DNA of 55,888 bases from NCBI GenBank assembly GCA_046294495.1, contig JBKBKV010000005.1:1-55888 (forward strand). Reading direction: 5' to 3'. The stretch's first letter is position 1. Every line of letters begins with the position of its first letter. The notes under the pieces were generated by a model. That model was not told the DNA's origin, ran no database searches, and was given only the letters and a program-made list of their open reading frames with translations. The stretch is from Dehalococcoidia bacterium. GTDB lineage: Bacteria > Chloroflexota > Dehalococcoidia > Lucifugimonadales > HRBIN23. The position numbers and the translations under genes were made by a program. This document shows, piece by piece, positions 23,347 through 35,915 of the stretch.

Positions 23347-24894
23347 TCAGGGTGGGAGTGGACGGAACGCCCGGCAATCGGGGCAAAGACCGGTAAAGCC
23401 ATGGAGGTTGGCGATACCCTGCTGGGCCATCAGACTTTCCACACGCTTTACCAAAGCCAGGGGCATGAAGGGGCGGCCACAGGAGCGGCATACCGCCTGC
23501 TCCGTCCTCGCTAGCACCCTAGGGCCTTGGGCAAGGGTAGTGGTGTCCACGCCCTGCCATAGGCTTATGGCCCTCTCGGGGCAGGCGGGAACGCACAGGG
23601 CGCAGGCCGTGCACCGTGCTGGGTTGAAAGTTAGCGCCACTTCCCCCTCACTTTCCTGGATGGCGAGGGCCTGCGGGGGGCAGAGGGTGGCACAGGTGCC
23701 ACAGAGAGTGCAAGCCGTGCTCACCTGCACTACGCCAAGGGGAACGAAAGAGTGCTCCTGATGCACCCTCGCACTGGCGCGCTGGGCCAGGGCCAGAAGG
23801 AGGGCGGGGAGGCCATCTTCACGAGAGGTTTCCAGGGGGGCAAGGGACGGAAGGGTAGCCAAACGGTGCAGGGTATCAGCCTGCGCCCCTTTGTCGGATG
23901 GCAAGATGGCCAGGCGCTCTCGTCCCAAACCCAGGGCCTCCAGCAAGTCGGCCAGGGCCTGTATCCGCCCACGCACGACGGGCGAGGCCCGATGGGGGCA
24001 ATGGGCGGCGTCGGGGAGAGCCACGCCCGTTCCCCCCAGGCCAAAGACCAGCAAGAGCACCTCCAGGGGGAGCATCCCCAGGCAAGGCACCTCAACCTGG
24101 AATATGGAGGGTGGGGGGCTGTCGTCGCCTTGAGGCAGGGCGCCACAGGGGCAGGTAAAGGCGATCACACGCTGGGAGAGGCGTTCTTGGGGGAAGGTCA
24201 GGAGGGCGTGCACCTCGGCCCGCAGGGGGGATATGCCATTGGCAGGGAGGTTTATGGCCTGCACAGGGCAGGATGGAGCGCACAGCCCACAGCCCTCGCA
24301 CCGCTCCCGCACCACCCTAATGGCTCCATCTCCCTCCTCCAGGGCTTGGTAGGGGCAGGCCCCGAGGCACAGGCGACACCCCTGCTCGGCGGCGCACAGG
24401 TCCTCCTTTACTACCGCCACCTCCTGGTAGCGCACTGGGGGAAGGCGAAAGAGGGCGCGCCGGCTAACGGGCGTAGAAAGGGACGCAAGGCGCAGGCGAA
24501 CGGCATCAGGCGATACCTCCGGGGAGGCCTGAAGGCGGGCGACAGCCCCTGCCAGAAGCAGGGTGGCTCTGGCCAAGGCCATCTCCTGGTCAGGGACGGG
24601 CCTATGCCACCCCTTCAGGTCAACGGTGCGGAGGCTCAGGGAGGCAAGGCGCACCCGCTGGACCTCCCGTTCAAAGGCCATACGGTGCTCCTTCTCGGCA
24701 CAGGCACCTACTACAACCCCCTCTGCCTGGCACTCAAGGGCTATTCGGGCCAGTAGGGCAGGCTTCTGGCAGAGCGCCTCTGGCCCGCGCACAACTACAC
24801 CCGGGAAGTGCCCCCCAAGGGAGCGGCGGATGTGCTCCAGGTCTACGCCGTTCAGCCCGGCGCAGTAACACAGGGCAACCAGGATGCGGCGCAT
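23347..24894 (-). CDS. Cytoplasmic polyferredoxin: four CxxCxxCxxxCP motifs, N-terminal MvhD/FlpD-like Cys region, C-terminal Zn-ribbon-like CxxC...CxxC
   Basis: CRLCLGACP, CEGCGLCAPSCP, CTLCGTCATLCP, CTACALCVPACP. N-terminus ILVALCYCAG...EGVVVGACA. C-terminus CRSCGRPF...LCPDCRAF. No signal or Tat motif. Confidence 0.7.
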   Translation of the reverse strand: MRRILVALCYCAGLNGVDLEHIRRSLGGHFPGVVVRGPEALCQKPALLARIALECQAEGVVVGACAEKEHRMAFEREVQRVRLASLSLRTVDLKGWHRPVPDQEMALARATLLLAGAVARLQASPEVSPDAVRLRLASLSTPVSRRALFRLPPVRYQEVAVVKEDLCAAEQGCRLCLGACPYQALEEGDGAIRVVRERCEGCGLCAPSCPVQAINLPANGISPLRAEVHALLTFPQERLSQRVIAFTCPCGALPQGDDSPPPSIFQVEVPCLGMLPLEVLLLVFGLGGTGVALPDAAHCPHRASPVVRGRIQALADLLEALGLGRERLAILPSDKGAQADTLHRLATLPSLAPLETSREDGLPALLLALAQRASARVHQEHSFVPLGVVQVSTACTLCGTCATLCPPQALAIQESEGEVALTFNPARCTACALCVPACPERAISLWQGVDTTTLAQGPRVLARTEQAVCRSCGRPFMPLALVKRVESLMAQQGIANLHGFTGLCPDCRAFRPLPP

Positions 24895-24904
24895 GGCTTA
24901 CCCC

Positions 24905-25612
24905 CTATCTCCGCTTGGGGGGCGAAGCGGTTCCCCTGCGCAGATGCTCAATCACAGCGTTTACCAGCCCCTGCTCATGGAATACAAAAGCCACCGCACC
25001 TTCTGCTACAGTAGCATAGAAGGAGGAGGCGTTGTGCTGAGACAATGCTCGGGCCAAAAGGGGGAGCCACTGGACAAGGTGCTCCTCAAGAAATGCCTTC
25101 TCCTGCTCCAGCATTGCCACACCAGCGGCTAGGTCTTTTCTCCGCCACGCCTGGCCCTCGCGCTCACACAGGAAAGCCATGAACTCCAACTCCACACTGA
25201 TGTGGTCCGGCGGGTATCCCGCAGTGGAGAGGGTAAGGTCGGCGGCCCGATAGTGTTCCAGGAGCCTCGCCAGCAGAAGCCCTGCATCGGCGCCCAACAG
25301 GCCTCGGCATACTCCTTCCCGCGGGGATAGAGGGGCTCTTTCCGTCCCCCGGGAGAAGAGGCGCATATACTCCTCCTGCAAACGCGGGAGGTCCGAGGTG
25401 GTAAGAGCGGTGAGAGCCTGGAACAGGCGTCGCCAGGTTGGAAAAAGGTCAAAGCCCAGAAGGGGATAGCGCTCCAGAACATAAGCCACTTGTGCCAGCG
25501 TGGACAGGCGCTCCCCCTCTGGGTAGAAGAAGAGGTCGGCTAGAAAGCGATAGGCTGCCTGGCGTGCTTGGGCCAGGCGTGGCAAAGGCGTGCCGGGGTA
25601 ACTAGATGCCAC
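24905..25612 (-). CDS. TorD/DmsD/NarJ-family molybdoenzyme maturation chaperone
   Basis: 235 aa, all-helical. RQAAYRFLADLFFYPEG...EEYMRLF...PDHISVELEFMAFL matches the TorD-like family signature (E-Y-x-LF, PDH-x-x-EL-F). Confidence 0.7.
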   Translation of the reverse strand: MASSYPGTPLPRLAQARQAAYRFLADLFFYPEGERLSTLAQVAYVLERYPLLGFDLFPTWRRLFQALTALTTSDLPRLQEEYMRLFSRGTERAPLSPREGVCRGLLGADAGLLLARLLEHYRAADLTLSTAGYPPDHISVELEFMAFLCEREGQAWRRKDLAAGVAMLEQEKAFLEEHLVQWLPLLARALSQHNASSFYATVAEGAVAFVFHEQGLVNAVIEHLRRGTASPPKRR

Positions 25613-25688: not shown

Positions 25689-26990
25689 CTACCTTCCTTC
25701 CTCCTGCACCTCCATGATAGGGAACAACTTGATGAAGAGGAGGTATAGGAACATCCCCAGGGCGAAGAGGCCCAGGACAACGCTGTATTCCACCCAGGTG
25801 GGTGCGTAGTAACCGGGGCCGTAGGGCAGGAGGGCACCGTGAGTCAGCGAGGGGACTACGATCAGGTAGCGCTTGCCGATGGCTGCCAGGTTCACCAGCA
25901 CGCCGCTGAGGACGATGAGAGGCAGGGAGTAACGCCTCACAAGGGCTTGCCCAGCGCCAAGGGCGACAGAGAGCACGAACAGCCCGCCCGAGAGCCAGAA
26001 GAGCCAGGCGTATTGGCCCTTCAGCAGAGCATCCGTTACCTGAACCTCGTAGCCAGGGCCTGCATAGCCGCTGGCCAGGAACTCAAGCAGCAGGAAAGAG
26101 ATGTAGATTATGGTGAGCGCCATCAGGAGGTTGCTGAGCCAAGCGAAGACCCGTGGGTTCAACCGCTCCCGCTCCCCCAACACCTCCCGGAGGACGGCTG
26201 CGATGACGATGATAATCCCCGTAGCCGAGACCCCTGCCAGCACCACGAAACTGGGGCCCTGAAGGGCGCTATACCACCCCGGCCGTCCCCACTGGATGCC
26301 GAACACCAGACCCGAAGTGGAGGCTGCCACTACGCCCGCCACCAGCAGGACAAGGGCCAGTCCCAGACTGACCCGCTGGCGCCTCTCCTGTTGGCGCTGC
26401 CTCTGCGCCTCGGAGGTCATGGGGTAGCCTGCGGCTATAGCGCGCAGGAACCTTCGCCACCCGGTGGACTGGCGGGCGAGAAGGGCGGCATCCCGGCGGC
26501 TATCTAGGTAGAGATAGGTGGCAGTGGCCACTAGAGAGGTGATTACCCCCACGCTGAAAGTGCCGAAGAAGGGGGACATGGGCCGGGCATAGCGGAGAAG
26601 GTTCACGATGGCCCTGACGGGCTGACCTACATCGGCAATGATGCTCAAGGCCCCGACCAGCAAGGCAGCCAAAGCCGTCAGACCAAGGGGCCTACTTAGA
26701 GGGTGCAGATGGGAAAGCCCCATCAGGCGGACAAGGGCCAGCAAAACCATAGCCCCAAACCCTACCCCCACCGCGTAAAGCTCAAAGGCCACATACAGCC
26801 CCCAAGTGGCCCCGGCCGTGGTGCCCACATCCCGCATGCCCGTCGCGACCTCCCCTTCCATAACTTGGCGGGCGTAGGCATAAGCCCCCAAGCCCACCAG
26901 GGCCAGGAGGCCCAGGGTAATAAGAAGCCACCCAACACCAACGCGCCCCATGCCGTAGGGAAGAGCCCTCGCTTCTGCACGCGTTGCCAT
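25689..26990 (-). CDS. NrfD/PsrC-family integral membrane quinone-interacting subunit (paralog 2)
   Basis: About 10 predicted helices and highly similar to 30140-31486 along the full length. AAGGAGGAGG lies 6 nt before ATG 26990. Confidence 0.8.
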   Translation of the reverse strand: MATRAEARALPYGMGRVGVGWLLITLGLLALVGLGAYAYARQVMEGEVATGMRDVGTTAGATWGLYVAFELYAVGVGFGAMVLLALVRLMGLSHLHPLSRPLGLTALAALLVGALSIIADVGQPVRAIVNLLRYARPMSPFFGTFSVGVITSLVATATYLYLDSRRDAALLARQSTGWRRFLRAIAAGYPMTSEAQRQRQQERRQRVSLGLALVLLVAGVVAASTSGLVFGIQWGRPGWYSALQGPSFVVLAGVSATGIIIVIAAVLREVLGERERLNPRVFAWLSNLLMALTIIYISFLLLEFLASGYAGPGYEVQVTDALLKGQYAWLFWLSGGLFVLSVALGAGQALVRRYSLPLIVLSGVLVNLAAIGKRYLIVVPSLTHGALLPYGPGYYAPTWVEYSVVLGLFALGMFLYLLFIKLFPIMEVQEEGR

Positions 26991-27039
26991 ATGTATCCTC
27001 CTCCTTGTGTTGTTTGGCACTGAACCCTTGGCTTGCACC

Positions 27040-27570
27040 TTATCCTATACCCTGTCTCACCTTATTCCGCACCACCCTAAACCCAAAGACCACCCGGTGG
27101 CCGTGGTCCAGGTCATGGCAAACCACAGACTCCTGGCTTACCCCCTCTCCCCGGAGGCACCGGCCCACCGCCCATTCCAGACGGGAGCGGACCAGGGGAC
27201 AGAGACCTGGAGTAACAGTGTCTTCTGTGAAAAGGAACCTCTGCCCTACCCGGAAGCGCTGGCCCAGGGGGCACACCCCCTGTGCCTGAATCACGCGAGC
27301 GATGGCCACCACTTGGGGAACCGTGTGCTCCACATTTCGGGACGCCTCCAACCGGCACCCCCCATGCTTTCGCTCTCGCACCCACCCCACAAGAGCCGTC
27401 ACCTGTATCACAAACAGACCAACCACCGCCGCGAGGGCCAGCAGCAGGGCCAGGAGATAGCCGCCAAACATACCAATCGCCAGCAACAGGGCTATGCCAA
27501 TCCCCGCCAAGACCCTCCTCAGAGCCGAGGCCCGGCCTACCTTTTCCACCTCAGTATCAACGCCCTTCAT
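27040..27570 (-). CDS. Membrane-anchored protein with C-terminal TIGR04076-like Cys domain (paralog of 3979-4527)
   Basis: N-terminal helices (VLAGIGIALLLAIGMFGGYLLALLLALAAVVGLFVIQVTALVG), then GVCPLGQRFRVGQRFLFTED..TPGLCPLV..VVCHDLDHGHRVVFGFRVVR. AAGGAGGTGG precedes the ATG. Confidence 0.5.
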   Translation of the reverse strand: MKGVDTEVEKVGRASALRRVLAGIGIALLLAIGMFGGYLLALLLALAAVVGLFVIQVTALVGWVRERKHGGCRLEASRNVEHTVPQVVAIARVIQAQGVCPLGQRFRVGQRFLFTEDTVTPGLCPLVRSRLEWAVGRCLRGEGVSQESVVCHDLDHGHRVVFGFRVVRNKVRQGIG

Positions 27571-27877
27571 GCTCCACCTCCTTAACCCCTGTGCCGCTGG
27601 AGAAGCCCTTCTGAGAGATTTGGGCGATGAACTCCCTTATCCACTTCTCCCCCCTGGCTCTGTAGAAGGAGTAAGGTCCGCCCGAGAGGGGGTTGCGGAA
27701 TATTTCCAGGATCTGCTGGTAGTTCAACCCCCGGCGTATGAACTCCTCCACCATACAGTGGGCTATTTCTTCCAGAATGTCTTCCAGCGGCTCAACGCAC
27801 AGGGGCTCAATATGGTATCCCAAGGGCTTCGCCTCTTTAGGCATACCATTGCCCTTCTGGCTCAGCCCGGTTCCCAT
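27557..27877 (-). CDS. Hypothetical soluble protein (no family recognised)
   Basis: First gene after the terminator. Start chosen at MGTGLSQ (AAGGTGGGGG upstream); an alternative start is at 27937. The product ends 14 nt inside the next gene. Confidence 0.4.
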   Translation of the reverse strand: MGTGLSQKGNGMPKEAKPLGYHIEPLCVEPLEDILEEIAHCMVEEFIRRGLNYQQILEIFRNPLSGGPYSFYRARGEKWIREFIAQISQKGFSSGTGVKEVEHEGR

Positions 27878-27951
27878 ATCTGCCCCCACCTTGCTGGTCC
27901 CCTTTTTCAGTGTGGAGGAGCACGGGCTGGGAGACATCTCCCATGAGAGGG

Positions 27952-27994
27952 GGTTCTATAATAAAAAGAGACGGGATTTTTTATCCCGTCTCTT
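27952..27994 (-). terminator. Intrinsic terminator after the response-regulator gene
   Basis: Perfect 12-bp stem AAGAGACGGGAT/ATCCCGTCTCTT with T5 loop. On the minus strand it is followed by TTTTATTAT. A second hairpin CCATCCCC/GGGGATGG lies at 28026-28047. Confidence 0.75.
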
Positions 27995-28076
27995 GCCCGA
28001 TTGCCGTGGCTCCCCTCAGGCTTTACCATCCCCTCCGAAGGGGGATGGACATCCCCTGCCATCGGGGTAGCGCCGG

Positions 28077-28733
28077 CTAATAAGGAGGCTTAAGGAACCC
28101 CAGGCGCGTGGCGTATTTCAACAGTTCACCCCGGCTCTGCAGGTTCAGTTTCTCCATGATATGCTCCCGATGGGTCTGGACGGTGTGAACGCTGATGCAC
28201 AGCCGCTCAGCGATCTCTCGGTTGGTATAGCCCTGGGCGATGAGGCGCAACACCTCTTTCTCCCGGTCGCTTAGCTTGGCGTATGTCTCCTTCTCCTCAC
28301 CCTTTCCCACTCGGCTCAGGTAGTCGGCCACCAGATAGCCGGCCACGGAAGGGTGAAGGAAGATCTCACCTTTGGTCACCGCTCGTAAGGCCGCCACCAG
28401 CTCGGCCGATTTGGCTCCTTTCACCACATAGCCAGCGGCCCCTGCCTCCAGGGCCCGAAAGAAATACTCGGCATCCCCGTGCATGGTCAGGATCAGCACC
28501 TTCGCTTGAGGGAGGGCCTTCAATATCTTGCGGGTTCCCTCCAGGCCGTTGCCTTCCATCCTGATGTCCATCACCACCACATCTGGGCGATTTTTCTGTG
28601 CCTCTTGGAGCGCCTCCTCCGCGTTCCCCGCCTCCCCAACCACCTCAAACTCGCCCTGCGCTTCTAGAAGCATGCGGAGCCCTTCACGGAACAAGGCGTG
28701 GTCATCCACTAACAGCACTCGGGCTTTGCCCAT
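28077..28733 (-). CDS. NarL/FixJ(LuxR)-family response regulator
   Basis: Receiver domain (VLLVDDH...VVVMDIRM...KVLILTMH) plus a C-terminal GerE HTH (LSDREKEVLRLIAQGYTNREIAERLCISVHTVQTHR). Confidence 0.85.
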   Translation of the reverse strand: MGKARVLLVDDHALFREGLRMLLEAQGEFEVVGEAGNAEEALQEAQKNRPDVVVMDIRMEGNGLEGTRKILKALPQAKVLILTMHGDAEYFFRALEAGAAGYVVKGAKSAELVAALRAVTKGEIFLHPSVAGYLVADYLSRVGKGEEKETYAKLSDREKEVLRLIAQGYTNREIAERLCISVHTVQTHREHIMEKLNLQSRGELLKYATRLGFLKPPY

Positions 28734-29841
28734 CCATGGCCTCCTCAAGAAGCGGAAGCTCCACCTTCACCTTCGTCCCCCTGCCCGGCGTAGAGACCAA
28801 CTCCAGATGAGCACCGATGATCTCGGCCCGCTCTCGCATACCTTCCAGCCCCAGCCCCCGTTTCATCCGCTGGACCTCTTGGAGATCAAAGCCGCGGCCG
28901 TCGTCCTCCACTATGGCCGTCAGACGGTCGTCCTGGAAATGGATCTGCACCCTGGCGTGTTGCGCCGCTGCGTGGCGAGCGATATTGTTTATCGCTTCCT
29001 GCAACATGCGGAACAAGCCCACTTCCACGGCTTCAGGGAGCCTCCTGGCCTCCCCTTGCACCTCAAAATCCAAACTGACCCCCAATGGTGCCAGACAGGC
29101 CCGGGCGTAGGAGTATAGGCCAGACACCAAACCCAGATAGTCCAGAGCCGCCGGCCTCAGGCCCAGGATGATCCGTCGCAACTCCTCCAGTGCCCGGCTC
29201 CCCTGAAGGATGGACCGCTCTATATGCTGACGCACTCGCTCCTGGCCTGGGAGCAGGGAATCCCGGAGGGCTTCTATCCCCATCAGGAGGTTGGCCAGGG
29301 CCGGGGCGGTATCGTCATGGAGCTCCTGAGCCAGACGCCGCCGTTCCTCCTCCTGGGCGTGGATGACCTGCTTCACAAGACGCTGGACCTCCAGAGTCCG
29401 TTCCCGCACCCGCTTCTCCAGTTCCTGCTCCCACCAAGCCCGCGCCTCACTGGCCGCTTTAAGCTGTGAGCACATAGCGTTAAAGCTTTGAGCCAGCCGC
29501 CCGATCTCGTCCCGCCTTGCCGTAGTGACGGGCGGCTCATCCAGCACGCCCCGGGCGATACGGGCCGCGGCTTTCTCCAACTCTCCCAGGGGACGGAGAA
29601 TGTAGCGGGCGTGCAGCCAGGCGCTGGCCGACGCCACCGCCAGAACCCCAAGCCCGAAGAGAGGCACGATGCTTAGCAGCCGGGAAAGGGGCCAGCCGTT
29701 TCGTAAGGCATAGGCCGTGATCAGGCCAAAAACCACCGTTGCGAACACAACACCTGCCACCACCCCAAGAACCACCTGGTAGCACACGCTCAGGTCCCGG
29801 TACAAGGTAAGCGCTCGTCTCAAAACCCCGCCTCCCTGCAT
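28702..29841 (-). CDS. Sensor histidine kinase, NarX/LiaS type (2 TM + HAMP + HisKA_3 + HATPase_c)
   Basis: HAMP-like DEIGRLAQSFNAM, H-box RRLAQELHDDTAPAL, N/G boxes (NNIARHA, EDDGRGF, GLGLEGMRERA). Start at MQGGG with GGGAGGGGAG upstream. Confidence 0.8.
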   Translation of the reverse strand: MQGGGVLRRALTLYRDLSVCYQVVLGVVAGVVFATVVFGLITAYALRNGWPLSRLLSIVPLFGLGVLAVASASAWLHARYILRPLGELEKAAARIARGVLDEPPVTTARRDEIGRLAQSFNAMCSQLKAASEARAWWEQELEKRVRERTLEVQRLVKQVIHAQEEERRRLAQELHDDTAPALANLLMGIEALRDSLLPGQERVRQHIERSILQGSRALEELRRIILGLRPAALDYLGLVSGLYSYARACLAPLGVSLDFEVQGEARRLPEAVEVGLFRMLQEAINNIARHAAAQHARVQIHFQDDRLTAIVEDDGRGFDLQEVQRMKRGLGLEGMRERAEIIGAHLELVSTPGRGTKVKVELPLLEEAMDGQSPSAVSG

Positions 29842-29920
29842 CTCCCCTCCCTTTCCCTGGCAGGAGTATCCTACCCTTCCGCTCTGCCACCCCGCATTGG
29901 GGCCGAGGGGCAACCTCCAC

Positions 29921-30127
29921 TCACCGCTCGGGAAACAGTTCGTAAACCACGGCCGAGAGGAAGGTGAGCATTACCCCCAGCACAAACAACCCCGCCGCAA
30001 AGGGCACCCGGGGGTTGCTGAAGCCCTCATGGACAGGCTGTCCGAGGGGTGCCGCCAGGAAGAAGTAACTTACCACCGCCAGGACCACCCCCGCCACCAG
30101 CGTCAGGACGGTCAGGGCAATACGCAT
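29921..30127 (-). CDS. Small two-helix membrane protein (68 aa), translationally linked to NrfD paralog 1
   Basis: MRIALTVLTLVAGVVLAVVSYFFLAA...AAGLFVLGVMLTFLSAVVYELF. GGGAGGTG lies 5 nt before the ATG, which is 12 nt after the upstream stop. Confidence 0.55.
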   Translation of the reverse strand: MRIALTVLTLVAGVVLAVVSYFFLAAPLGQPVHEGFSNPRVPFAAGLFVLGVMLTFLSAVVYELFPER

Positions 30128-30139
30128 GCCACACCTCCC

Positions 30140-31486
30140 TCATTGCTTCTCCGACCGCCTCTGCAACTCCGCCCTCACCGGTGCTTCCACCGGCACCTCC
30201 CTATGCACAACTTCCATAATGGGGAAGACCTTCATGAAGAGGGTGTAGAGGAGACCCCCCAGGGCGAAGAGACCCAGGATAATACTGTATTCCACCCAGG
30301 TGGGTGCGTAAGCGCCCTCACCGTAGGGGAGCAGGTTCCCCATCGTCAGAGAGGGCGCTACGATAAGGAAGCGCTTGCCGATAGCCGCTATGTTCACCAA
30401 CACCCCTGTCAGCACGATCAACGGCAGGTAGTGACGCCGGGTGAGGGCCTGTGCAAGCCCCATGAGAGCGGAGACGAACAGAAGCCCCCCTGAAAGCCAG
30501 AAGAGCCACGCATACCTGCCGGTAAGTAGCGCCTGGGTCAGGCGTGCCTCGTGGTGGTGCCCAGCATAGCCCGCCGTCAGCATTTCCGCCAGAAGGAAGT
30601 AGAGGTAGATCAAGGCGAGCACCGTCATGAAGTTGCTGAGCCAGACAAAGACCCGCAGGTTCAACTGCTCCCGCTCCCCCAGCACCTGCCTGAGTAGGGC
30701 CGCGATGACGATGAGGAGCCCCGTCCCAGATACCCCAGCCAGCATTACAAAGCCAGGGGCCTGGAGGGCGCTATACCACCCGGGGCGTCCCAACTGGATG
30801 CCAAAGACGAAGCCTAGGGTGGAGTGGGCCGTTACCAGCAAAGGCAGGATGGCCAAGGCTAGCCAGAAACTGGTCTGGTCGTGCCGTTTCCGTTCCTCGG
30901 GGGTGTCCCGGTAGCCCGCCGCCCACAGCCGGTAAAACCCCCTAAAGGGGGTGTCCTTTTGGGCCATCAGATAGGCGTCCCGACGCCCCGCCAGGTAGAA
31001 ATAGACCAGGCTGGCGAACAGGTAGCCGGAGATGACCAGGGTGAAGGTGCCGAAGAAGGGGGACATGGGCCGGGCGTAGCGGGGGAGGTTGATAAGGGCC
31101 CGAAAGGGCTGCCCCACATCTGCCAAGACGCTGAAGGCACCAAGTATGAGTGTTATCACCGTCAATAACTCGGCCGTGCGGGAGACGGGCCGCAGATAGG
31201 AGAGGTTCATAACCCGCACCAGGGCCGCCACGGTGATGCCCGCGAAACTCACCCCTACGAAATAGACCACGAAGGCGATATATAGCCCCCACGGGGCACC
31301 GCCCATAGTGCCCACATCCCGCATCCCCGTAACGATCTCCCCTTCCATAAGTTGACGAGAGTAGGCGTAAGCCCCCAGTCCCACCAGGGCCAGGAGGCCC
31401 AGCGTCGCCATAAACCACACTGCGCCCAACCGCCCTATGCCATAAGGGAGCCTTTCAAGCCGTGGAGCCTCGACCTTTTCCACCAT
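30140..31486 (-). CDS. NrfD/PsrC-family integral membrane quinone-interacting subunit (paralog 1)
   Basis: About 10 predicted helices. Start at MVEKVEAPRLERLPYG, 2 nt after the FeS-subunit stop, with GGGAGGGTG upstream. Confidence 0.85.
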   Translation of the reverse strand: MVEKVEAPRLERLPYGIGRLGAVWFMATLGLLALVGLGAYAYSRQLMEGEIVTGMRDVGTMGGAPWGLYIAFVVYFVGVSFAGITVAALVRVMNLSYLRPVSRTAELLTVITLILGAFSVLADVGQPFRALINLPRYARPMSPFFGTFTLVISGYLFASLVYFYLAGRRDAYLMAQKDTPFRGFYRLWAAGYRDTPEERKRHDQTSFWLALAILPLLVTAHSTLGFVFGIQLGRPGWYSALQAPGFVMLAGVSGTGLLIVIAALLRQVLGEREQLNLRVFVWLSNFMTVLALIYLYFLLAEMLTAGYAGHHHEARLTQALLTGRYAWLFWLSGGLLFVSALMGLAQALTRRHYLPLIVLTGVLVNIAAIGKRFLIVAPSLTMGNLLPYGEGAYAPTWVEYSIILGLFALGGLLYTLFMKVFPIMEVVHREVPVEAPVRAELQRRSEKQ

Positions 31487-31488
31487 GC

Positions 31489-32226
31489 TTACACCCTCCC
31501 TTTCACTTTCTCCATCTGCCGAACCGCAGTGCCGGGTGGCTGCCCTATGTAGTAAACCCGGGGCTGGGTATTCCACTCCTCCAGCAGGCGGAAGTGGGGC
31601 TTGCGCTTCAGAATGCGTGAGACAATACTGTTGGGGTCATCCAGGTCGCCGAAGTGGAGGGCGAAGGCAGGGCAATTGGCCACGCAGGCGGGCTGAAGCC
31701 CCTTCTCCACCCGCTGGACGCAGAAGGTGCACTTCTCGATCACGCCCTTTATATGGCCCCCCCCAGCGATGCGCCGCCTCTCAGGGCCGTAAGAGGCGGC
31801 CAGGTCGGGGTTCTTGTAGGGCGGGGTAGTGCCATTGGTTCGGGAGGCCAGGGCCTTGTCTTCCTTCCAGTCCAGGTAGTAGTTCTTCTTGGGTGCCTTC
31901 CAGTTGAAGTAGTTGACACCGTAAGGGCAGGCCACCTGGCAGTATCTGCACCCGATGCACCTCTCCCAGTCGGTGGCCACCAGCCCGTCCTCCCGTTTGT
32001 AGCGTGCCCCCACAGGACACACCTTCACGCAGGGGGGATTGTCGCAGTGCTGGCAAGGGCGAGGCAAGAACCAAACGCGGGTGTTGGGATATTGGCCCTC
32101 CTCAAAACGGAAGACATACATCCAGAAGACGGCCTGGGGGGTGTTGTTCTCCACTTTGCAGGCCTCCATGCAGGCCCGACACCCCATGCACCGCTCCAGG
32201 TCTATGACCATGCCGTATTTGGCCAT
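31489..32226 (-). CDS. Four-cluster [4Fe-4S] electron-transfer subunit (PsrB/NrfC/DmsB type)
   Basis: CMGCRACMEAC, CQHCDNPPCVKVCP, CIGCRYCQVACP, CTFC...CVANCP. No own signal peptide, as expected for a Tat hitch-hiker. Confidence 0.9.
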   Translation of the reverse strand: MAKYGMVIDLERCMGCRACMEACKVENNTPQAVFWMYVFRFEEGQYPNTRVWFLPRPCQHCDNPPCVKVCPVGARYKREDGLVATDWERCIGCRYCQVACPYGVNYFNWKAPKKNYYLDWKEDKALASRTNGTTPPYKNPDLAASYGPERRRIAGGGHIKGVIEKCTFCVQRVEKGLQPACVANCPAFALHFGDLDDPNSIVSRILKRKPHFRLLEEWNTQPRVYYIGQPPGTAVRQMEKVKGRV

Positions 32227-32240
32227 ATTGCCCCCCTTTA

Positions 32241-33035
32241 CTACTGTGCCTCAATGGGGATAGCCACGATGTCCGCATCAACACCTATGCCCAGGGTCAC
32301 GGGGAAAGAAACATGGTGCCGTCGGTTAGAGACCATGTCCTCAAAAACAGCGACCCCGATGGTATACGCCCGGCCTGGCTCAAAGGCGACATCGTCAGGA
32401 TTGCCGGTATTAAGTTTGCGGCGCATTTCCAAGACCCATTTCCCGTTCTCCCACCGACTGTTAGCCAGGATATCCCCTCGGCTTCCATCAGGCGTCCGCA
32501 ACACCCTGCGGGAGATGATGTCGCCAACCTGGAACTGGACAGAGGGATCAAAGGGCGCGGTTGTGACGCCCTCAATAAGGGGCGATTTGGTCAGGAGTTC
32601 TTCCAGGCGCCCTTCAGAGATAGCCTGAAAGCCAACTTTAGTCTTGTCATACATGTAGGTGGGCTTGCCTTCCTTCAGAACATTCTCCGAGAACATGCTC
32701 TTGCCCTTGTCGCTGTTGCGGTATTCCAGAACATAGAAGTCGTCGGCGTAGCCGATAGGCCCAGAGCGGGCCCCCCGCCACATTAACAAATCCAGGAACT
32801 GCTTGTCCTGAAAGAGTCGCTGGATCTCCTCCTTGGATTTACCCTTATTCCAACCTCCCGCAAGGTAAAGAGGCGTGGGGACTCCCAGGCTGTATACTGG
32901 GGCTCCTGAGGCTTGGAGGCCTGGATACTGACCGTCCCTAAGTAGTCCCCCACCGCCACCAGCACTGCAAAGACAATGGCGCCCCCCTACAAGAAGACGT
33001 TTACCAGGCCGGGCAAGGAAGTCTTTCATGGTCAT
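32241..33035 (-). CDS. Ethylbenzene-dehydrogenase-gamma-like (EB_dh / cytochrome c552-DMSO-reductase-like haem-binding domain) protein
   Basis: The C-terminal block ANSRWENGKWVLEMRRKLNTGNPDDVAFEPGRAYTIGVAVFED...RRHHVS parallels the type II DMSO-reductase gamma-subunit pattern (HRNGEWNV..R....D......AFAVW...R). The N-terminus as written lacks a signal peptide (see findings). Confidence 0.6.
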   Translation of the reverse strand: MTMKDFLARPGKRLLVGGRHCLCSAGGGGGLLRDGQYPGLQASGAPVYSLGVPTPLYLAGGWNKGKSKEEIQRLFQDKQFLDLLMWRGARSGPIGYADDFYVLEYRNSDKGKSMFSENVLKEGKPTYMYDKTKVGFQAISEGRLEELLTKSPLIEGVTTAPFDPSVQFQVGDIISRRVLRTPDGSRGDILANSRWENGKWVLEMRRKLNTGNPDDVAFEPGRAYTIGVAVFEDMVSNRRHHVSFPVTLGIGVDADIVAIPIEAQ

Positions 33036-33041
33036 CCTCTA

Positions 33042-35603
33042 CTACTTATACACCCGCACCTTGACATGGAAGGTGTTGTCGGCAGTGTTGGCTACATACC
33101 CTTCGCCGGTGAAGAACAGGGTGTTGGGGGTAGGCCCTTGCCCTTTGGTCCAGGGGTGGCGGGCTACCTCTCCATAGTGGTGAGGCATGCCCACCACATC
33201 CGGGCGGATGGCCTCGGTCAACGCCACTTTCACTTTCACCCGGCGCGTCTCGCCTGTTACGGCATTGTGGGACTCCACGATGACCTCATCCCCCTCTTTT
33301 ATGCCCCTCTCCCGCGCCGTTGCAGGGTTCATCACCAGCCTCTGCTCCTGGGCCAGTTCCGCCACCAAAGGTATCTGAGAGGCCCTGCTCTGCTTGAACT
33401 CTATCTTCTTAAAGGAGATAAGGGTGAGGTCATACTGGGGCGGGGACTTCCACATGGTCGGTTCCCGCCAGGTGGGGAAGGGGGTATAGTCCCGCCAGTA
33501 GACCTCCTCAGCACCCTTGGCCCGCATCTCCCTCTGGTAGCGCAAGAGGGACTCCCCGTATAGGCGGTGGCGTTCGGCGCCTTTGAAGCCCTGGGCATAG
33601 CCGTAAAAGGTCTTGGGAGCGACAGGGCCCCGCACCCAGACGCCATTCCTCTCAAAGTAGGCTATCCCCTCTGCCAGCCCCTGGGACTTGGCCCAGCGGT
33701 CGGCGATCTCCCTCACCGTGGGCTTGGTGTTGATGTCCAGTTTGTGGGGGTCTTTGAGGCCCAGTTGGGCATTGAGGCGGTCCAGGAAGCCGTCTTTACC
33801 GTAGAGGATGCCCAGCCTCTCGCACAGGTCCAGGTATATGTCAATCTCCCCACGGCTCTGGAATATCGGCTCCGTCACCGGCAGGCGGAAAGTGGTGGCG
33901 GCCACATACTGGTCAGTGGCTCCTATGGGCCCCTCGTATTTTTCCAGGGTAGAGGCGGGAAGAACTACATCAGCAAAGAGGTCGGCGGTGCGGGAGAGCC
34001 ATGGGTCAATGGCCACCACAAACTTGAACTTCTTATACGCCTCCATAAAGGTAGCCTGGTCCGTGAAGGAGGCCAGGGGGTTGACCATGTGCAGGATAAC
34101 CACCTCCGGGACCTTGTTGACCTGGTATTTCTCAGGGTTGAGCATGACCTTGGCTATCATGCCGGGGTTGACGGAAATAATGGGGAAGAACTTGCTGTCT
34201 TTGAGGGTGTAGTCGTAGGGGGGGTCTTTAATCTTCACTGAGTCTAGGGACTTGTAGTTGCCGTGCACCTTCCATGTCCAGTCAATGCGAACACCCCCCA
34301 CCGCCTCCACGGCCCCCAGAAGCATAAAGACCATATACATAGCACGGTAGAACTGAAAGCCCAGTTCCTGCTGGGACACGTGGTAAGCCATGAGGGAGAC
34401 GGGTCGGTAGGGGAGCGTAACCCCCTCCAGGACAATAGTGCTGCCGATCATAGCGTTCTGGCCCAGTTCACGAGCCACCCGTCTAATGTCCTCGGCGGGG
34501 ATGCCGCAGACCCCAGCAGCCCATTCGGGGGTATACCGCTCCACATGCTCCTTGAACAGTTGGAAGGCTGGCTTGACCCTTACCCCACCCACCTCAAACT
34601 CCCCTTCTAATGCTGGAGAGACATCCCTTGCATCAAAGGGCCTGGCGCTCTTGGTCTTCTCGTCCCATACCTGCTCCTTCCCTTCTATGCGCAGGAAGAA
34701 GCCGTCCTCCTGCACCAGGAAGGGAGCATTGGTATACTTGGCGAGGTAATCCAGGTCAACGGTGCCCTGAGCGATGAGCGCATTGCACAGGGCTAGGGCC
34801 AGGGCCAGGTCGGTGCCCGGCTTGATGGGGAGCCACTGGTCGGCGAAGGGGCCGGCGTTGCGCAGGTATGGGTCTATCACCACCACCTTCATCCCCCGCT
34901 CCCGCGCATCCAGAAACTGCTGGTTCCAGGTGATCCAGCACAACTTGTTGCCCCCTGCGTTGGTGATGTTCCACCCCCAGGCCAAGAGGTAGCGGGTGTA
35001 GCGAAAGTCGGGGTGGGCATTGCCGTGGAGGCCGATGGTGTATTCGGCTGCGCGGTAGCCGGCGTCGGAGCAGTAGGAGCCATGCCCCACCTTGGTTGCC
35101 CCCAGGGCACCAACAAAGGCGTTGTCGTAGATAGGCTCCTGTTTACTGCGCCCCTTCTGCCATAAGATTAGCTTGGGGTCTTTGGCCCGCACCTCCTTGA
35201 TCTTGGCCGCCACCAGTTCCAGGGCCTCGTCCCAGGTGGCTGGGCGGAAGCGCCCGGGGACACCCTTCTCGTTGGTGCGGATGAGGGGGGTCTGCACGCG
35301 GTTGGGGTCGTAGAGAGCCATAATCTGGGCTACCCCTTTAGGGCAGAGGGTGCCACGGTTGCGGGGGTGGTTCGGATGCCCCTCCAGTTTCACCACCAGG
35401 CCGTTCACCTTACGGGCCAAAATGCCACAGTCCTGTTTGCCTATCCAGCAGGTGGTGGGAACCCATTCTTCGCTGGCTGGGAGTGGTTTGGAATTGCCCC
35501 CTGCCGCCAGCGTCTCCAGCCCCTGGGACAGGAAACGAGAGAGGAGCAGAGAACCACCGACCGCTGCGCTACCCTTTAGGAAAGTCCGTCGCGTTACTTT
35601 CAC
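33042..35603 (-). CDS. Tat-exported molybdopterin (bis-MGD) oxidoreductase catalytic subunit, Psr/Phs/Ttr-like
   Basis: A GTG start with AAGGAGG 7 nt upstream gives (M)KVTRRTFLKGSAAVGG, a twin-arginine signal. It has an FS0-like Cys region, LCPKG and the candidate Mo-ligand region GHGSYCSDAGY. It is MopB-like along the full length, and an ADC-barrel-like C-terminus (VVGMPHHYG) is present. Confidence 0.85.
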   Translation of the reverse strand: MKVTRRTFLKGSAAVGGSLLLSRFLSQGLETLAAGGNSKPLPASEEWVPTTCWIGKQDCGILARKVNGLVVKLEGHPNHPRNRGTLCPKGVAQIMALYDPNRVQTPLIRTNEKGVPGRFRPATWDEALELVAAKIKEVRAKDPKLILWQKGRSKQEPIYDNAFVGALGATKVGHGSYCSDAGYRAAEYTIGLHGNAHPDFRYTRYLLAWGWNITNAGGNKLCWITWNQQFLDARERGMKVVVIDPYLRNAGPFADQWLPIKPGTDLALALALCNALIAQGTVDLDYLAKYTNAPFLVQEDGFFLRIEGKEQVWDEKTKSARPFDARDVSPALEGEFEVGGVRVKPAFQLFKEHVERYTPEWAAGVCGIPAEDIRRVARELGQNAMIGSTIVLEGVTLPYRPVSLMAYHVSQQELGFQFYRAMYMVFMLLGAVEAVGGVRIDWTWKVHGNYKSLDSVKIKDPPYDYTLKDSKFFPIISVNPGMIAKVMLNPEKYQVNKVPEVVILHMVNPLASFTDQATFMEAYKKFKFVVAIDPWLSRTADLFADVVLPASTLEKYEGPIGATDQYVAATTFRLPVTEPIFQSRGEIDIYLDLCERLGILYGKDGFLDRLNAQLGLKDPHKLDINTKPTVREIADRWAKSQGLAEGIAYFERNGVWVRGPVAPKTFYGYAQGFKGAERHRLYGESLLRYQREMRAKGAEEVYWRDYTPFPTWREPTMWKSPPQYDLTLISFKKIEFKQSRASQIPLVAELAQEQRLVMNPATARERGIKEGDEVIVESHNAVTGETRRVKVKVALTEAIRPDVVGMPHHYGEVARHPWTKGQGPTPNTLFFTGEGYVANTADNTFHVKVRVYK

Positions 35604-35915
35604 AGCAACCCTCCTTACCTTACATCGCGGGTAGCGTATGCCCCGACAAAGGGATAGCCTGTCAGTTGTGGTGCGTCTACTGCATCCGCCAGGTAATAAT
35701 GGCACAACCTGGCCTACAGGGGAAAGGGACGGAAGGCCTTTCATTGCACTAGCCGAAAGGCCCTCAAATGCAGGCCAGAATGCCAGGCCAAAGGTCTCAG
35801 GTAGAGAAGACTGTTACCATCTCTTTTGACCCCATCAGAAGGGGTTCTGGCCCTTTTCCCTCATTTTGACTATTATAGAAACGCCAGGACCAGGCGCTCC
35901 CTTGGAGGTTGTCCC

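Follow-up and report, generated by a model that had tools for sequence, protein, structure and literature searches.

The window analysed here, a stretch of 55,888 nt from contig JBKBKV010000005.1 of a Dehalococcoidia bacterium, carries a molybdoenzyme operon in which a gene resembling the gamma subunit of ethylbenzene dehydrogenase (EB_dh) separates the gene of the catalytic subunit (alpha) from that of the iron-sulfur subunit (beta), followed by a gene for an NrfD-type membrane anchor. In the initial annotation this composition had been read as a five-subunit complex of an architecture that could not be matched to any described enzyme. The locus raises the question if the interposed gene indeed provides such an enzyme with a haem subunit or if its presence has to be explained differently.

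Organization of the locus

All ORFs of the initial annotation were present at their coordinates on the minus strand in our ORF check, and Pfam, motif and hydropathy analyses bore out the gene order and the domain assignments, including the FeS subunit with four clusters, the 10-helix NrfD subunit and the 68-aa two-helix protein (Table 1). SD-like sequences were likewise found at the junctions, which are as tight as had been described: the alpha gene ends with TAG TAG, followed by AGG ATG, and the EB_dh ORF ends with TAG TAA, followed by AGGGGGG CAAT and the ATG of beta. The terminator proposed downstream of the response regulator gene could be seen as a hairpin, and the operon runs on beyond it with a second NrfD, a TorD-like chaperone and a polyferredoxin.

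Table 1. Features of the molybdoenzyme locus, with positions given for the window
Feature	Position	Strand	Evidence or remark
Alpha, predicted Tat-exported Mo/W-bisPGD catalytic subunit, 853 aa	33042..35603	-	GTG start after AAGGAGG
Remnant gene of an EB_dh-fold c-type cytochrome, open 264-aa ORF	32241..33035	-	Pfam EB_dh (PF09459)
G6 run, putative +1 frameshift site	32982..32987	-	Removal of one G gives back an HR23-like hydrophobic signal anchor
Ancestral signal-anchor/N-terminal segment GGAIVFAVLVAVGDYLGT VSIQASKPQEPQYTAWESPRLFT	32862..32981	-	Now read in the wrong frame
Beta, electron-transfer subunit	31489..32226	-	Pfam Fer4_11; 16 Cys in four [4Fe-4S]-type ferredoxin motifs
NrfD1, NrfD-family membrane anchor	30140..31486	-	Pfam NrfD, E = 2e-25; ~10 hydrophobic segments (hydropathy)
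68-aa two-helix membrane protein	29921..30127	-	No Pfam family; two hydrophobic helices
HisKA_3 histidine kinase	28702..29913	-	Pfam HAMP, HisKA_3, HATPase_c; 2 TM
NarL/LuxR-type response regulator	28077..28748	-	Pfam Response_reg, GerE
Intrinsic-terminator-like hairpin, 3′ of the response regulator	27966..27994	-	12-bp stem and T-rich tail
Window-specific block (p126, p176, second NrfD)	25689..27937	-	
p126	27557..27937	-	No family match
p176	27040..27570	-	No family match
Second NrfD paralogue	25689..27038	-	61% identical to NrfD1
TorD/NarJ-type maturation chaperone	24905..25612	-	Pfam Nitrate_red_del; position conserved in the family
Polyferredoxin, 515 aa, FlpD/MvhD-like domain	23347..24894	-	Conserved at the end of the family's operons

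The alpha subunit matches the Pfam domains TAT_signal, Molybdop_Fe4S4, Molybdopterin and Molydop_binding, in agreement with its description as a Tat-signal catalytic subunit of the MopB type; PF10518 matches residues 2–21, and the sequence contains RRTFLKGSAAVGG. Its Mo-ligand motif reads HGSYCSD, and in an alignment with Thermus PsrA and Shewanella ArrA as references the cysteine of HGSYC coincides with the ligand region of both proteins (SVSLC and HSSVC, respectively). This cysteine is conserved without exception in the 80 family members compared, and the assumed Cys ligation and Psr-like nature of alpha were upheld. The FS0 motif, C52-W-I-G55-K-Q-D-C59...C87, is unusual in that a glycine takes the place of the second cysteine; the canonical four-cysteine form C-x2-C-x3-C...C is absent from alpha, and the glycine is found in all 80 family members.

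The family placement of alpha was based on NCBIfam equivalog scores and PDB matches. Alpha reached none of the equivalog cut-offs, those of PhsA, ArrA, TtrA and DmsA/YnfE all being far above its scores. The best match was PhsA (256 bits, cut-off 694) and the second-best QrcB (168 bits, cut-off 440); TIGR03479 (DMSO_red_II_alp) scored 156 bits (cut-off 985), ArrA 138 bits (cut-off 1600) and TtrA 64 bits (cut-off 1750). The nearest relatives in the PDB are PsrA (2vpw, E = 5e-43) and ArrA (6cz7, E = 1e-31). Judged by its sequence, alpha is a Tat-exported, Cys-liganded protein of the Psr/Arr-like kind. Beta does not possess a signal peptide and obtained 214 bits with ArrB and 204 bits with DsrO.

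The core operon represents a widespread family

More than 1,700 database proteins match alpha at E <= 1e-10, and the family occurs in Chloroflexota, Methylomirabilota, Actinomycetota, Nitrospinota and archaea with 59–83% identity across phyla. In a survey of 80 species-level loci, whose alpha subunits are 59–79% identical, beta directly follows alpha in 78. The core operon consists of the genes for alpha, the four-cluster beta, NrfD, a two-helix protein of ~70 aa, a TorD-like chaperone and a polyferredoxin, and this is also the usual order past beta; the NrfD anchor is kept in most loci and missing from some. In most of these loci, NrfD is followed by a homologue of the 68-aa protein, which marks this protein as a conserved small subunit. 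The core operon is a member of a large, highly conserved and uncharacterised Psr/Phs/Arr-like CISM family, that is, of a very widespread group of enzymes with an invariant non-canonical FS0 motif and no assigned substrate. Since the cultured Ca. Lucifugimonas marina JH545, a SAR202 member, carries the canonical operon, the function of this family is experimentally approachable.

Of the species genomes surveyed, 78 show the alpha-beta junction, and not one of them has an EB_dh gene there; the gene is likewise absent from the loci of the two nearest alpha relatives that were examined (81% and 83% identity). Its presence is patchy across the alpha tree.

The EB_dh ORF is a decayed cytochrome gene

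The 264-aa ORF indeed matches EB_dh (E = 2e-28); however, the match covers the C-terminal half of the profile only (positions 107–236 of 236). A complete EB_dh gamma subunit was rejected as an interpretation on account of this partial match and of the length of the homologues, which comprise 440–510 aa. Comparison to the 511-aa orthologue of 'bacterium HR23' reveals that the ORF is pieced together from segments in different frames. While residues 59–261 are 80% identical to residues 302–504 of the HR23 protein, residues ~19–58 constitute out-of-frame sequence: codons 1–18 share the HR23 frame, the ~40 codons after them fit HR23 residues 17–58 in the +1 frame only (BLOSUM62 score 89), and in-frame homology picks up again at HR23 residue ~301. 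A +1 frameshift, which we place in the G6 run, has put the ancestral signal anchor out of frame. The 3′ end of the ancestral N-terminal segment (~32862) forms the junction of a 727-nt deletion (727 = 3 x 242 + 1), which joins nt 176 of the HR23 gene to nt 903 and has removed all three haem-c motifs (HR23 codons ~59–300) together with the N-terminal half of the fold, including the strands that align to EbdC 55–89. Convincing microhomology was not found at the breakpoint ACCTT/GCGGG, and the missing N-terminal half is not encoded elsewhere in the window (tblastn E >= 0.6). Because the two lesions compensate each other, the 264-aa reading frame remains uninterrupted until 14 nt ahead of beta.

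Of the features of an operon-embedded cytochrome, the window copy has thus kept the position between alpha and beta and the C-terminal ~205 residues, and has lost the in-frame signal anchor or lipobox, both CxxCH motifs and the CX3CH motif. All family-invariant residues of the retained part are still in place, including Met128 and His240. Hydropathy analysis of the 264-aa product did not reveal a hydrophobic N-terminal segment or an own export signal, and AF2 modelled it poorly (pLDDT 57.7; residues 1–65 and 78–122 below 50). In the profile alignment, the Lys region of EbdC falls near RRHHVSF of the family, where a His is invariant and Lys is absent.

The 264-aa ORF hence is, as read from its motifs and alignment, orthologous to an EB_dh-fold c-type cytochrome of ~510 aa but decayed, and the comparison shows that the lineage of the window inherited the cytochrome gene and is now losing it. 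The exotic look of the operon is due to a remnant gene in decay, which should neither be annotated as an ethylbenzene dehydrogenase gamma subunit nor be counted as a haem subunit.

As a counterpoint to loss, the remnant still is an intact ORF with an SD-like sequence, and its compensating lesions could reflect selection for the C-terminal domain and not just for translation through to beta.

Intact cytochrome genes in related loci

In the intact orthologue of ~510 aa, the EB_dh fold is accompanied by two CxxCH and one CX3CH as haem-c motifs and by a signal anchor at the N-terminus. Its gene lies between those of alpha and beta in HR23 (L173) and in the metagenome contigs L172 and L174, all three of which show the order alpha, EB_dh-like protein of 505–511 aa, beta, NrfD and a protein of ~72 aa, so that the gene order noticed in the window recurs with an intact gene. 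In HR23, the order equals that of the window from alpha through a methyltransferase, an amidase and an enoyl-CoA hydratase, with 79% identity for the alpha C-terminus, 80% for the C-terminal part of EB_dh, 78–93% for beta and 90% for the hydratase. Missing from this syntenic locus is a block of ~4.3 kb that comprises p126, p176, the second NrfD, the kinase and the regulator. Two further loci are partially covered by their contigs: L171 contains the C-terminus of alpha, a 474-aa EB_dh-like protein (lipobox, CASCH, CQACH, CWITCH) and the start of beta, and in L008 an EB_dh-like gene cut by the contig start lies directly upstream of beta, followed by NrfD, the small protein and the TorD-like chaperone.

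The full-length proteins span positions 3–236 of the EB_dh profile, in contrast to 107–236 in the window copy. A model of the long form (pLDDT 86) matches NxrC and EbdC across ~400 alignment columns, and the best PDB fold matches of the intact form are 7b04_C and 2ivf_C with a probability of 1.0. Since the intact proteins of ~470–510 aa carry CxxCH and CX3CH motifs, they are c-type cytochromes by this criterion, and the classification of the window protein as a haem-b gamma subunit of the type II enzymes had to be abandoned, its intact orthologues being c-type proteins of ~500 aa.

Free-standing homologues of ~440–460 aa are common and occur next to NapC/NirT, bc-type complexes, MtrB-type porins and NapA. 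These long forms contain one CxxCH and one CX3CH, compared to two CxxCH and one CX3CH in the operon-embedded subfamily. In L106 and L111, they are encoded directly upstream of bona fide NapA (1123 and 1112 bits, respectively; cut-off 904), which suggests a NapB-like role as periplasmic redox partner. NapB, the dihaem electron donor to NapA, differs from these cytochromes in its fold, and the window contains no Nap genes. A metagenome scan with the single 264-aa sequence gave no matches, and one with alignment A1 yielded 80 loci, none of which harbors a window-type alpha. No NCBIfam model matches the EB_dh-like protein.

An enzyme with the order alpha, EB_dh, beta and NrfD was not found in the literature searched, which addressed EB_dh with NrfD, Lucifugimonas molybdopterin enzymes, CISM phylogenies and extracellular electron transfer and contained no characterization of the system. 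Together with the unreached NCBIfam equivalogs, this agrees with the earlier statement that the architecture could not be matched to a described enzyme. As far as gene order tells, the composite architecture is real, undescribed and patchily distributed, and it is rare, because few intact loci are known and none of the 78 surveyed genomes has the EB_dh gene. The patchy distribution and the ongoing loss suggest that an accessory electron route is gained and lost.

Comparison to characterized enzymes

With PsrABC/PhsABC (e.g. Thermus thermophilus PsrABC, PDB 2VPZ) and ArrAB(C), the window operon has in common a Tat-exported, Cys-liganded Mo-bisPGD alpha, a four-cluster beta without a signal peptide of its own and an NrfD-type anchor; PhsA and ArrB are the best NCBIfam matches of alpha and beta, respectively. 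It differs from these systems by the FS0 motif of its family (C-x2-G-x3-C) and by the additional ~70-aa membrane protein, TorD-like chaperone and polyferredoxin. PsrC is an 8-helix anchor, and DsrP, QrcD and ActC are the kind closer to the 10-helix form; the anchor of the window, with ~450 aa and ~10 helices, is thus nearer to the latter three.

The gamma subunits of the type II enzymes partner Asp-liganded alpha subunits, and these enzymes are soluble and not NrfD-anchored. The intact orthologues share with EbdC and NxrC, as well as SerC, DdhC and ClrC, the beta-sandwich fold of EB_dh (PF09459) and the location of the gene beside those of a MopB alpha and an FeS beta. Type II gammas have a size of ~200–290 aa and a single haem b ligated by Met and Lys (PMC8840923). 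The intact cytochromes of the window family, in contrast, are c-type proteins of ~470–510 aa with a Cys-liganded, Psr-like alpha and NrfD as predicted partners, and the window copy possesses only the C-terminal half of the fold.

Qrc (QrcABCD) and Alternative Complex III follow a similar plan, in which a MopB-type protein is combined with an FeS protein, an NrfD-type protein of 10 helices and a c-type cytochrome; the NCBIfam matches to QrcC and QrcD are weak. Neither QrcB nor ActB retains the Mo cofactor or its ligand; unlike them, the window alpha keeps the Cys ligand together with both domains for PGD binding. Multihaem all-alpha proteins serve as cytochromes in Qrc and Alternative Complex III, as opposed to the EB_dh-fold cytochrome found here.

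Proposed enzyme and alternative explanations

The locus most likely encodes an uncharacterised Psr/Phs/Arr-like enzyme whose cytochrome gene has been lost to deletion and frameshift, and which works without this cytochrome. On the model of the PsrABC and Arr structures, alpha and the four-cluster beta would sit on the quinone-interacting NrfD-type anchor together with the ~70-aa protein. The TorD-like chaperone would serve in the maturation of the complex, and the polyferredoxin is always co-encoded. Again by analogy, electrons would pass between the quinone pool at NrfD, the FeS chain of beta and then FS0, and the Mo site, with a substrate located in the periplasm. In a minority of lineages, the EB_dh-fold cytochrome of ~470–510 aa with its signal anchor or lipobox, encoded between alpha and beta, presumably provides the FeS chain with a second, cytochrome-linked electron route; its gene position suggests that it is a physical subunit. 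The window enzyme would correspond to the canonical complex of alpha, beta, NrfD and the small subunit, and the open remnant ORF may at most keep translation going through to beta. The remnant nevertheless points to an undescribed arrangement, in which a Psr/Arr-like, NrfD-anchored molybdoenzyme is combined with an EB_dh-fold c-type cytochrome between alpha and beta.

A working five-subunit complex that uses the 264-aa product as haem subunit, as initially assumed, is unlikely in the window, because the signal anchor has been frameshifted and the deletion has taken away the haem-c motifs as well as half of the fold at the N-terminus. More generally, the product could be a functional fifth subunit, either binding haem b or acting as a haem-less half-domain, that hitch-hikes through the Tat pathway with alpha/beta and docks on the complex along with NrfD. 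We regard this as improbable, although the ORF is open and has an SD-like sequence, its lesions compensate each other, no invariant residue of the retained part has been lost, with Met128 and His240 as potential axial ligands, and dN/dS relative to HR23 is 0.08, as low as in the neighbouring genes. Such a low value is just as expected with recent lesions, and the product comprises half of the EB_dh fold, ~40 out-of-frame residues and no signal peptide or hydrophobic segment, lacks all three haem-c motifs and is poorly modelled, with residues 1–122 mostly below pLDDT 50. A selective version of this explanation holds that the +1 frameshift was favoured since it restored translation of the C-terminal half-domain, which would then be a haem-c-free fifth subunit, Tat-carried with alpha/beta, and would play a structural role or bind haem b via Met128 and His240. 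We consider this version doubtful to the same degree; if true, it would represent the domain-level remodelling of a redox subunit, caught soon after the event.

Very unlikely is an assembly or sequencing artefact that conceals a full-length gene of ~510 aa like that of HR23. A homopolymer such as G6 is a typical site of sequencing errors, but an internal deletion of 727 nt is no homopolymer error, and correction of the G run alone leads to a stop at 32783, soon past the junction. In addition, the flanking genes are intact, and the 90% cluster of the 262-aa form starting at the second ATG (P0121) has two members, with a longest recorded contig of 11,898 nt as compared to the 55,888 nt of the window. 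Insertion of a partial free-standing cytochrome gene between alpha and beta by illegitimate recombination, so that the gene was never full-length here, would fit the common free-standing homologues, which are mobile among contexts, and the patchy EB_dh presence on the alpha tree, but it is hardly credible given the 80% identity to the operon-embedded HR23 gene (<= 57% for other homologues found), the ancestral start codon and signal-anchor region upstream of the junction, placed as in HR23, and the HR23 synteny across the whole locus.

The adjacent two-component system

The kinase encoded in the operon had been called NarX-like, which applies to its HisKA_3 core only, because there is almost no extracytoplasmic loop: its hydrophobic helices (residues 47–65 and 79–97) are 13 residues apart, and hydropathy analysis found no periplasmic ligand-binding (P-box) sensor domain between them. 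The pair thus has in common with the NarX/NarL nitrate system the HisKA_3 core and a regulator with REC and LuxR-type HTH domains, whereas the P-box periplasmic sensor of NarX is without counterpart. Expression of the operon is probably under control of this adjacent HisKA_3/NarL-type pair. Kinase homologues adjoin the operon in many of the 80 surveyed genomes and regulator homologues of >= 150 bits adjoin alpha in 23 of 80 loci, so that the proposed dedicated NarL-type system is matched by a homologous pair beside this type of operon in no fewer than 23 of the 80 genomes.

The operon and its catalytic subunit

All ORFs named in the initial annotation were recovered on the minus strand, with tight junctions and SD-like sequences between them, and are listed below with their identities to the corresponding products of bacterium HR23 (locus L173).

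Features of the window and identity to HR23
Feature	Coordinates	Strand	Families or description	Identity to HR23
alpha (catalytic)	33042-35603	-	Pfam TAT_signal, Molybdop_Fe4S4, Molybdopterin, Molydop_binding	79% (C-terminus)
FS0 motif of alpha	35430-35456		alpha residues 50-58	
EB_dh ORF (264 aa)	32241-33035	-	Pfam EB_dh (PF09459), E = 2e-28, profile positions 107-236 of 236 only	80% (residues 59-261 vs HR23 302-504)
G6 run	32982-32987			
60-aa ORF	32783-32965	-	ancestral frame of the signal-anchor region	
beta (FeS)	31489-32226	-	Pfam Fer4_11	78-93%
NrfD1 (anchor)	30140-31486	-	Pfam NrfD	67%
68-aa small protein	29921-30127	-	no Pfam family	
Kinase	28702-29913	-	Pfam HAMP, HisKA_3, HATPase_c	
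Response regulator	28077-28748	-	Pfam Response_reg, GerE	
Terminator-like hairpin	27966-27994	-	12-bp stem, T-rich tail	
p126	27557-27937			
p176	27040-27570			
Kinase-to-second-NrfD block	25689-29913		~4.3 kb	
TorD-like chaperone				59%
Polyferredoxin	23347-24894		FlpD/MvhD-like domain	62%
Enoyl-CoA hydratase				90%

The proposed four-cluster beta, 10-helix NrfD and two-helix small protein were borne out by motifs and hydrophobic segments: beta carries four ferredoxin-type motifs with 16 Cys, NrfD1 about ten hydrophobic helices and the 68-aa protein two. The strong terminator suggested downstream of the regulator corresponds to the hairpin in the table.

The nearest solved structures to alpha are Thermus PsrA (2vpw, E = 5e-43) and ArrA (6cz7), and in alignments with each of them the Cys of its 'GHGSYC' stretch falls in the ligand-Cys region, which supports the assignment as a Cys-liganded, Psr-like subunit. 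No equivalog cut-off was reached in an NCBIfam search (bits against cut-off: PhsA 256/694, QrcB 168/440, ArrA 138/1600). More than 1,700 proteins of a large protein database match alpha at E <= 1e-10; the top 120, of 65-83% identity and from many phyla, are named only 'molybdopterin-dependent oxidoreductase', and a characterisation of this family was not found in the literature searched. When the window was aligned with 79 species-level loci, the ligand motif H-G-x-[YF]-C-S-D was invariant in all 80 sequences. Equally invariant (window and L010-L089), and non-canonical, is the motif of the FeS cluster FS0, C-W-I-G-K-Q-D-C-G: compared with the canonical C-x2-C-x3-C, Gly takes the place of the second Cys in 80/80 sequences, and Asp58 and Lys56 are likewise invariant. 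As judged from the sequence, the Gly-for-Cys replacement implies that the cluster is of the 3Fe-4S type or has a fourth ligand other than Cys. A tightly conserved, uncharacterised enzyme family with such a motif is of durable interest.

The canonical operon and the departures of the window

A scan with alpha over one genome per species yielded 80 loci (alpha identity 59-79%), whose called ORFs were searched with the proteins of the window. Among the taxa represented are Dehalococcoidia, Anaerolineae, Thermoflexus, Thermomicrobia, Methylomirabilota, Actinomycetota, Nitrospinota, Thermoplasmata and Bathyarchaeia, and one locus belongs to the isolate Ca. Lucifugimonas marina JH545. Beta directly follows alpha in 78 of the 78 loci with this junction on the contig, and none of these junctions holds an EB_dh gene; the closest alpha relatives examined, L001 (81%) and L170 (83%), also have nothing between the two genes. 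The commonest order is alpha, beta, NrfD, a ~70-aa protein, a TorD-like chaperone and a polyferredoxin with an FlpD/MvhD-like domain. The latter protein, of ~460-540 aa, is encoded by the last gene in most of L010-L089 and matches HdrA C-terminal, NapF and RnfB models weakly; it may take part in maturation or provide a cytoplasmic electron link. No NrfD homologue is present in the operons of L014, L021, L024, L025, L027, L028, L047, L053 and L063, mostly from Methylomirabilota/Rokubacteria plus one Burkholderiales MAG; these consist of alpha, beta, TorD-like and polyferredoxin genes with only a ~50-960 nt gap after beta, which suggests a soluble or differently anchored form of the enzyme.

The window departs from the canonical operon twice, by the EB_dh ORF at the alpha-beta junction and by a block of ~4.3 kb that separates the small-subunit gene from that of the chaperone. 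This block, which is absent from the syntenic HR23 locus, comprises the kinase, regulator, terminator, p126, p176 and another NrfD gene, whose product shows 61% identity to NrfD1 and 54% to HR23 NrfD. The second NrfD lacks its own small-subunit partner; neither p126 nor p176 matches a family or has a homologue in any locus compared. The NarL-type system noted beside the operon was confirmed by its Pfam domains, and at least 23 of the 80 loci have homologues of both genes (HisKA_3 kinase, NarL-type regulator) as a pair close by. The kinase possesses two TM helices 13 residues apart, followed by HAMP, and would sense within or at the membrane and not via a periplasmic domain. Since such a domain is missing, nothing points specifically to nitrate.

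The EB_dh gene of the window is a broken remnant

HR23 and the window share their gene order through methyltransferase, amidase and enoyl-CoA hydratase. Over codons 1-18 (MTMKDFLARPGKRLLVGG) the window's EB_dh ORF corresponds in frame to HR23 residues 1-18; the following ~120 nt match HR23 residues 17-58 (signal anchor onward) in the +1 frame only (GGAIVFAVLVAVGDYLGT VSIQASKPQEPQYTAWESPRLFT; BLOSUM62 score 89); after that, similarity resumes at HR23 residue ~301, in frame again. The G6 run is the likely site of a +1 insertion, and removal of one G in silico brings back the hydrophobic N-terminus. The deletion comprises nt 177-903 of the HR23 gene, i.e. 727 nt or 3 x 242 + 1; together with the 1-nt insertion the lesions therefore cancel and the ORF remains open. 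Translation in the ancestral frame would end at 32783, and the 60-aa ORF follows this frame through the deletion junction to the stop.

With the deleted segment the gene lost each of the three haem-c motifs as well as the N-terminal half of the fold; this half is not encoded in the rest of the window. Full-length proteins cover EB_dh profile positions 3-236. The window's product has no hydrophobic segment and gave a poor model (pLDDT 57.7; residues 1-65 and 78-122 <50). The predicted match to EB_dh thus holds for the C-terminal part of the profile only, and the haem-b gamma subunit of the initial annotation is replaced by a broken remnant of an operon-embedded haem-c cytochrome gene.

The 205 retained codons keep every family-invariant residue and have a dN/dS against HR23 of 0.08 (alpha C-terminus 0.19, NrfD 0.29; dS near saturation), and the anchor segment, although out of frame, can still be clearly recognised. 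Such a picture is expected from recent inactivation and does not in itself demonstrate a present function. Through the compensating frameshift the ORF stays open until 14 nt before beta, keeping ribosomes on the message, and avoided polarity on beta and NrfD would be a sufficient explanation for it. That selection acts on the half-domain itself, for which the low dN/dS might be taken to speak, appears improbable to us. An assembly artefact is unlikely because the 727-nt deletion is not a homopolymer error and the 90% cluster of the 262-aa second-ATG form (P0121) holds two member sequences, with a longest recorded contig (11,898 nt) other than the window.

Intact cytochrome genes between alpha and beta

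On the short contig L171, an EB_dh-like gene lies between the 3' end of an alpha gene, whose product has 68% identity to the C-terminus of the window's alpha, and the start of beta. This gene encodes 474 aa without interruption, with a lipobox (LAALGC) and the motifs CASCH, CQACH and CWITCH, and a search with this protein revealed a ~470-510-aa subfamily. Three members are on long contigs (L172, HR23 and L174), and in each case alpha (854 aa) precedes the cytochrome gene, with beta, NrfD and a ~72-aa protein after it. The proposed composite order is hence genuine and recurrent, and constitutes an undescribed variant of a known enzyme type, in which the inserted protein is an EB_dh-fold c-type cytochrome and not a haem-b gamma subunit; the initial interpretation is to this extent partly supported. 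On another short contig, L008, a partial EB_dh-like gene precedes those for beta, NrfD, a 71-aa protein and a TorD-like protein. Two overlapping ORFs (108 and 155 aa) are called in place of one HR23 beta gene (L173 2349-3091), pointing to a frameshift or assembly error in that genome.

In a low-resolution neighbour-joining tree of the 213 C-terminal alpha residues, the window groups with HR23 (intact gene) and with L170, L001, L010 and L011 (without the gene); L171 and L172 cluster elsewhere, and L174 forms a branch by itself. The cytochrome gene is therefore distributed patchily. One loss is documented directly by the window; the rest of the pattern may stem from repeated losses, from gains or from both.

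By analogy with PsrABC and Arr, the enzyme, with its Tat signal, NrfD anchor and small membrane protein, would be a periplasm-facing, quinone-linked oxidoreductase in which electrons pass from NrfD via beta and FS0 to Mo, or in reverse. In genomes with an intact cytochrome, haem c would open a further route for electrons between the enzyme and periplasmic partners, in either direction, resembling the role of the gamma subunit of type II enzymes or of NapB, and the enzyme of the window presumably works without it.

Free-standing EB_dh-like cytochromes

Nearly all homologues of the EB_dh ORF are 440-460 aa long, and the window's ORF aligns to them from ~residue 59 onward only. In the free-standing long forms, a signal peptide is accompanied by one CxxCH and one CX3CH. 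The AlphaFold model of one of these, P0125 (pLDDT 86), best matches NxrC (7b04_C) and EbdC (2ivf_C) in alignments that span ~400 columns for a query of 461 residues, so that both halves of the protein contribute to the EB_dh sandwich.

The neighbours of these genes include NapC/NirT-type tetrahaem cytochromes, Rieske/cytochrome b modules with multihaem cytochromes, MtrB/PioB-type porins and other sets of Arr/Phs-like MopB, FeS and NrfD proteins (e.g. L121). In L106 (1528-5380) and L111 (76-4088), a gene for a ~450-aa EB_dh-like c-type cytochrome lies immediately upstream of a bona fide NapA (1123 and 1112 bits, NCBIfam cut-off 904), and these cytochromes may be NapB-like electron donors. From such gene neighbourhoods, the free-standing forms look like general periplasmic redox partners or electron shuttles, a role of which no description was found in the literature searched. 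The association of EB_dh-fold c-type cytochromes with several respiratory modules is a second point of durable interest. Family members beside NapC/NirT, Rieske/cytochrome b and MtrB/PioB porin-cytochrome clusters occur in L003, L004, L006, L007, L009, L124, L130, L138 and L143-L168, and a weak EB_dh-like match (50 bits) is located ~8 kb downstream of a canonical operon in a Methylomirabilia MAG (L035 20358-21407).
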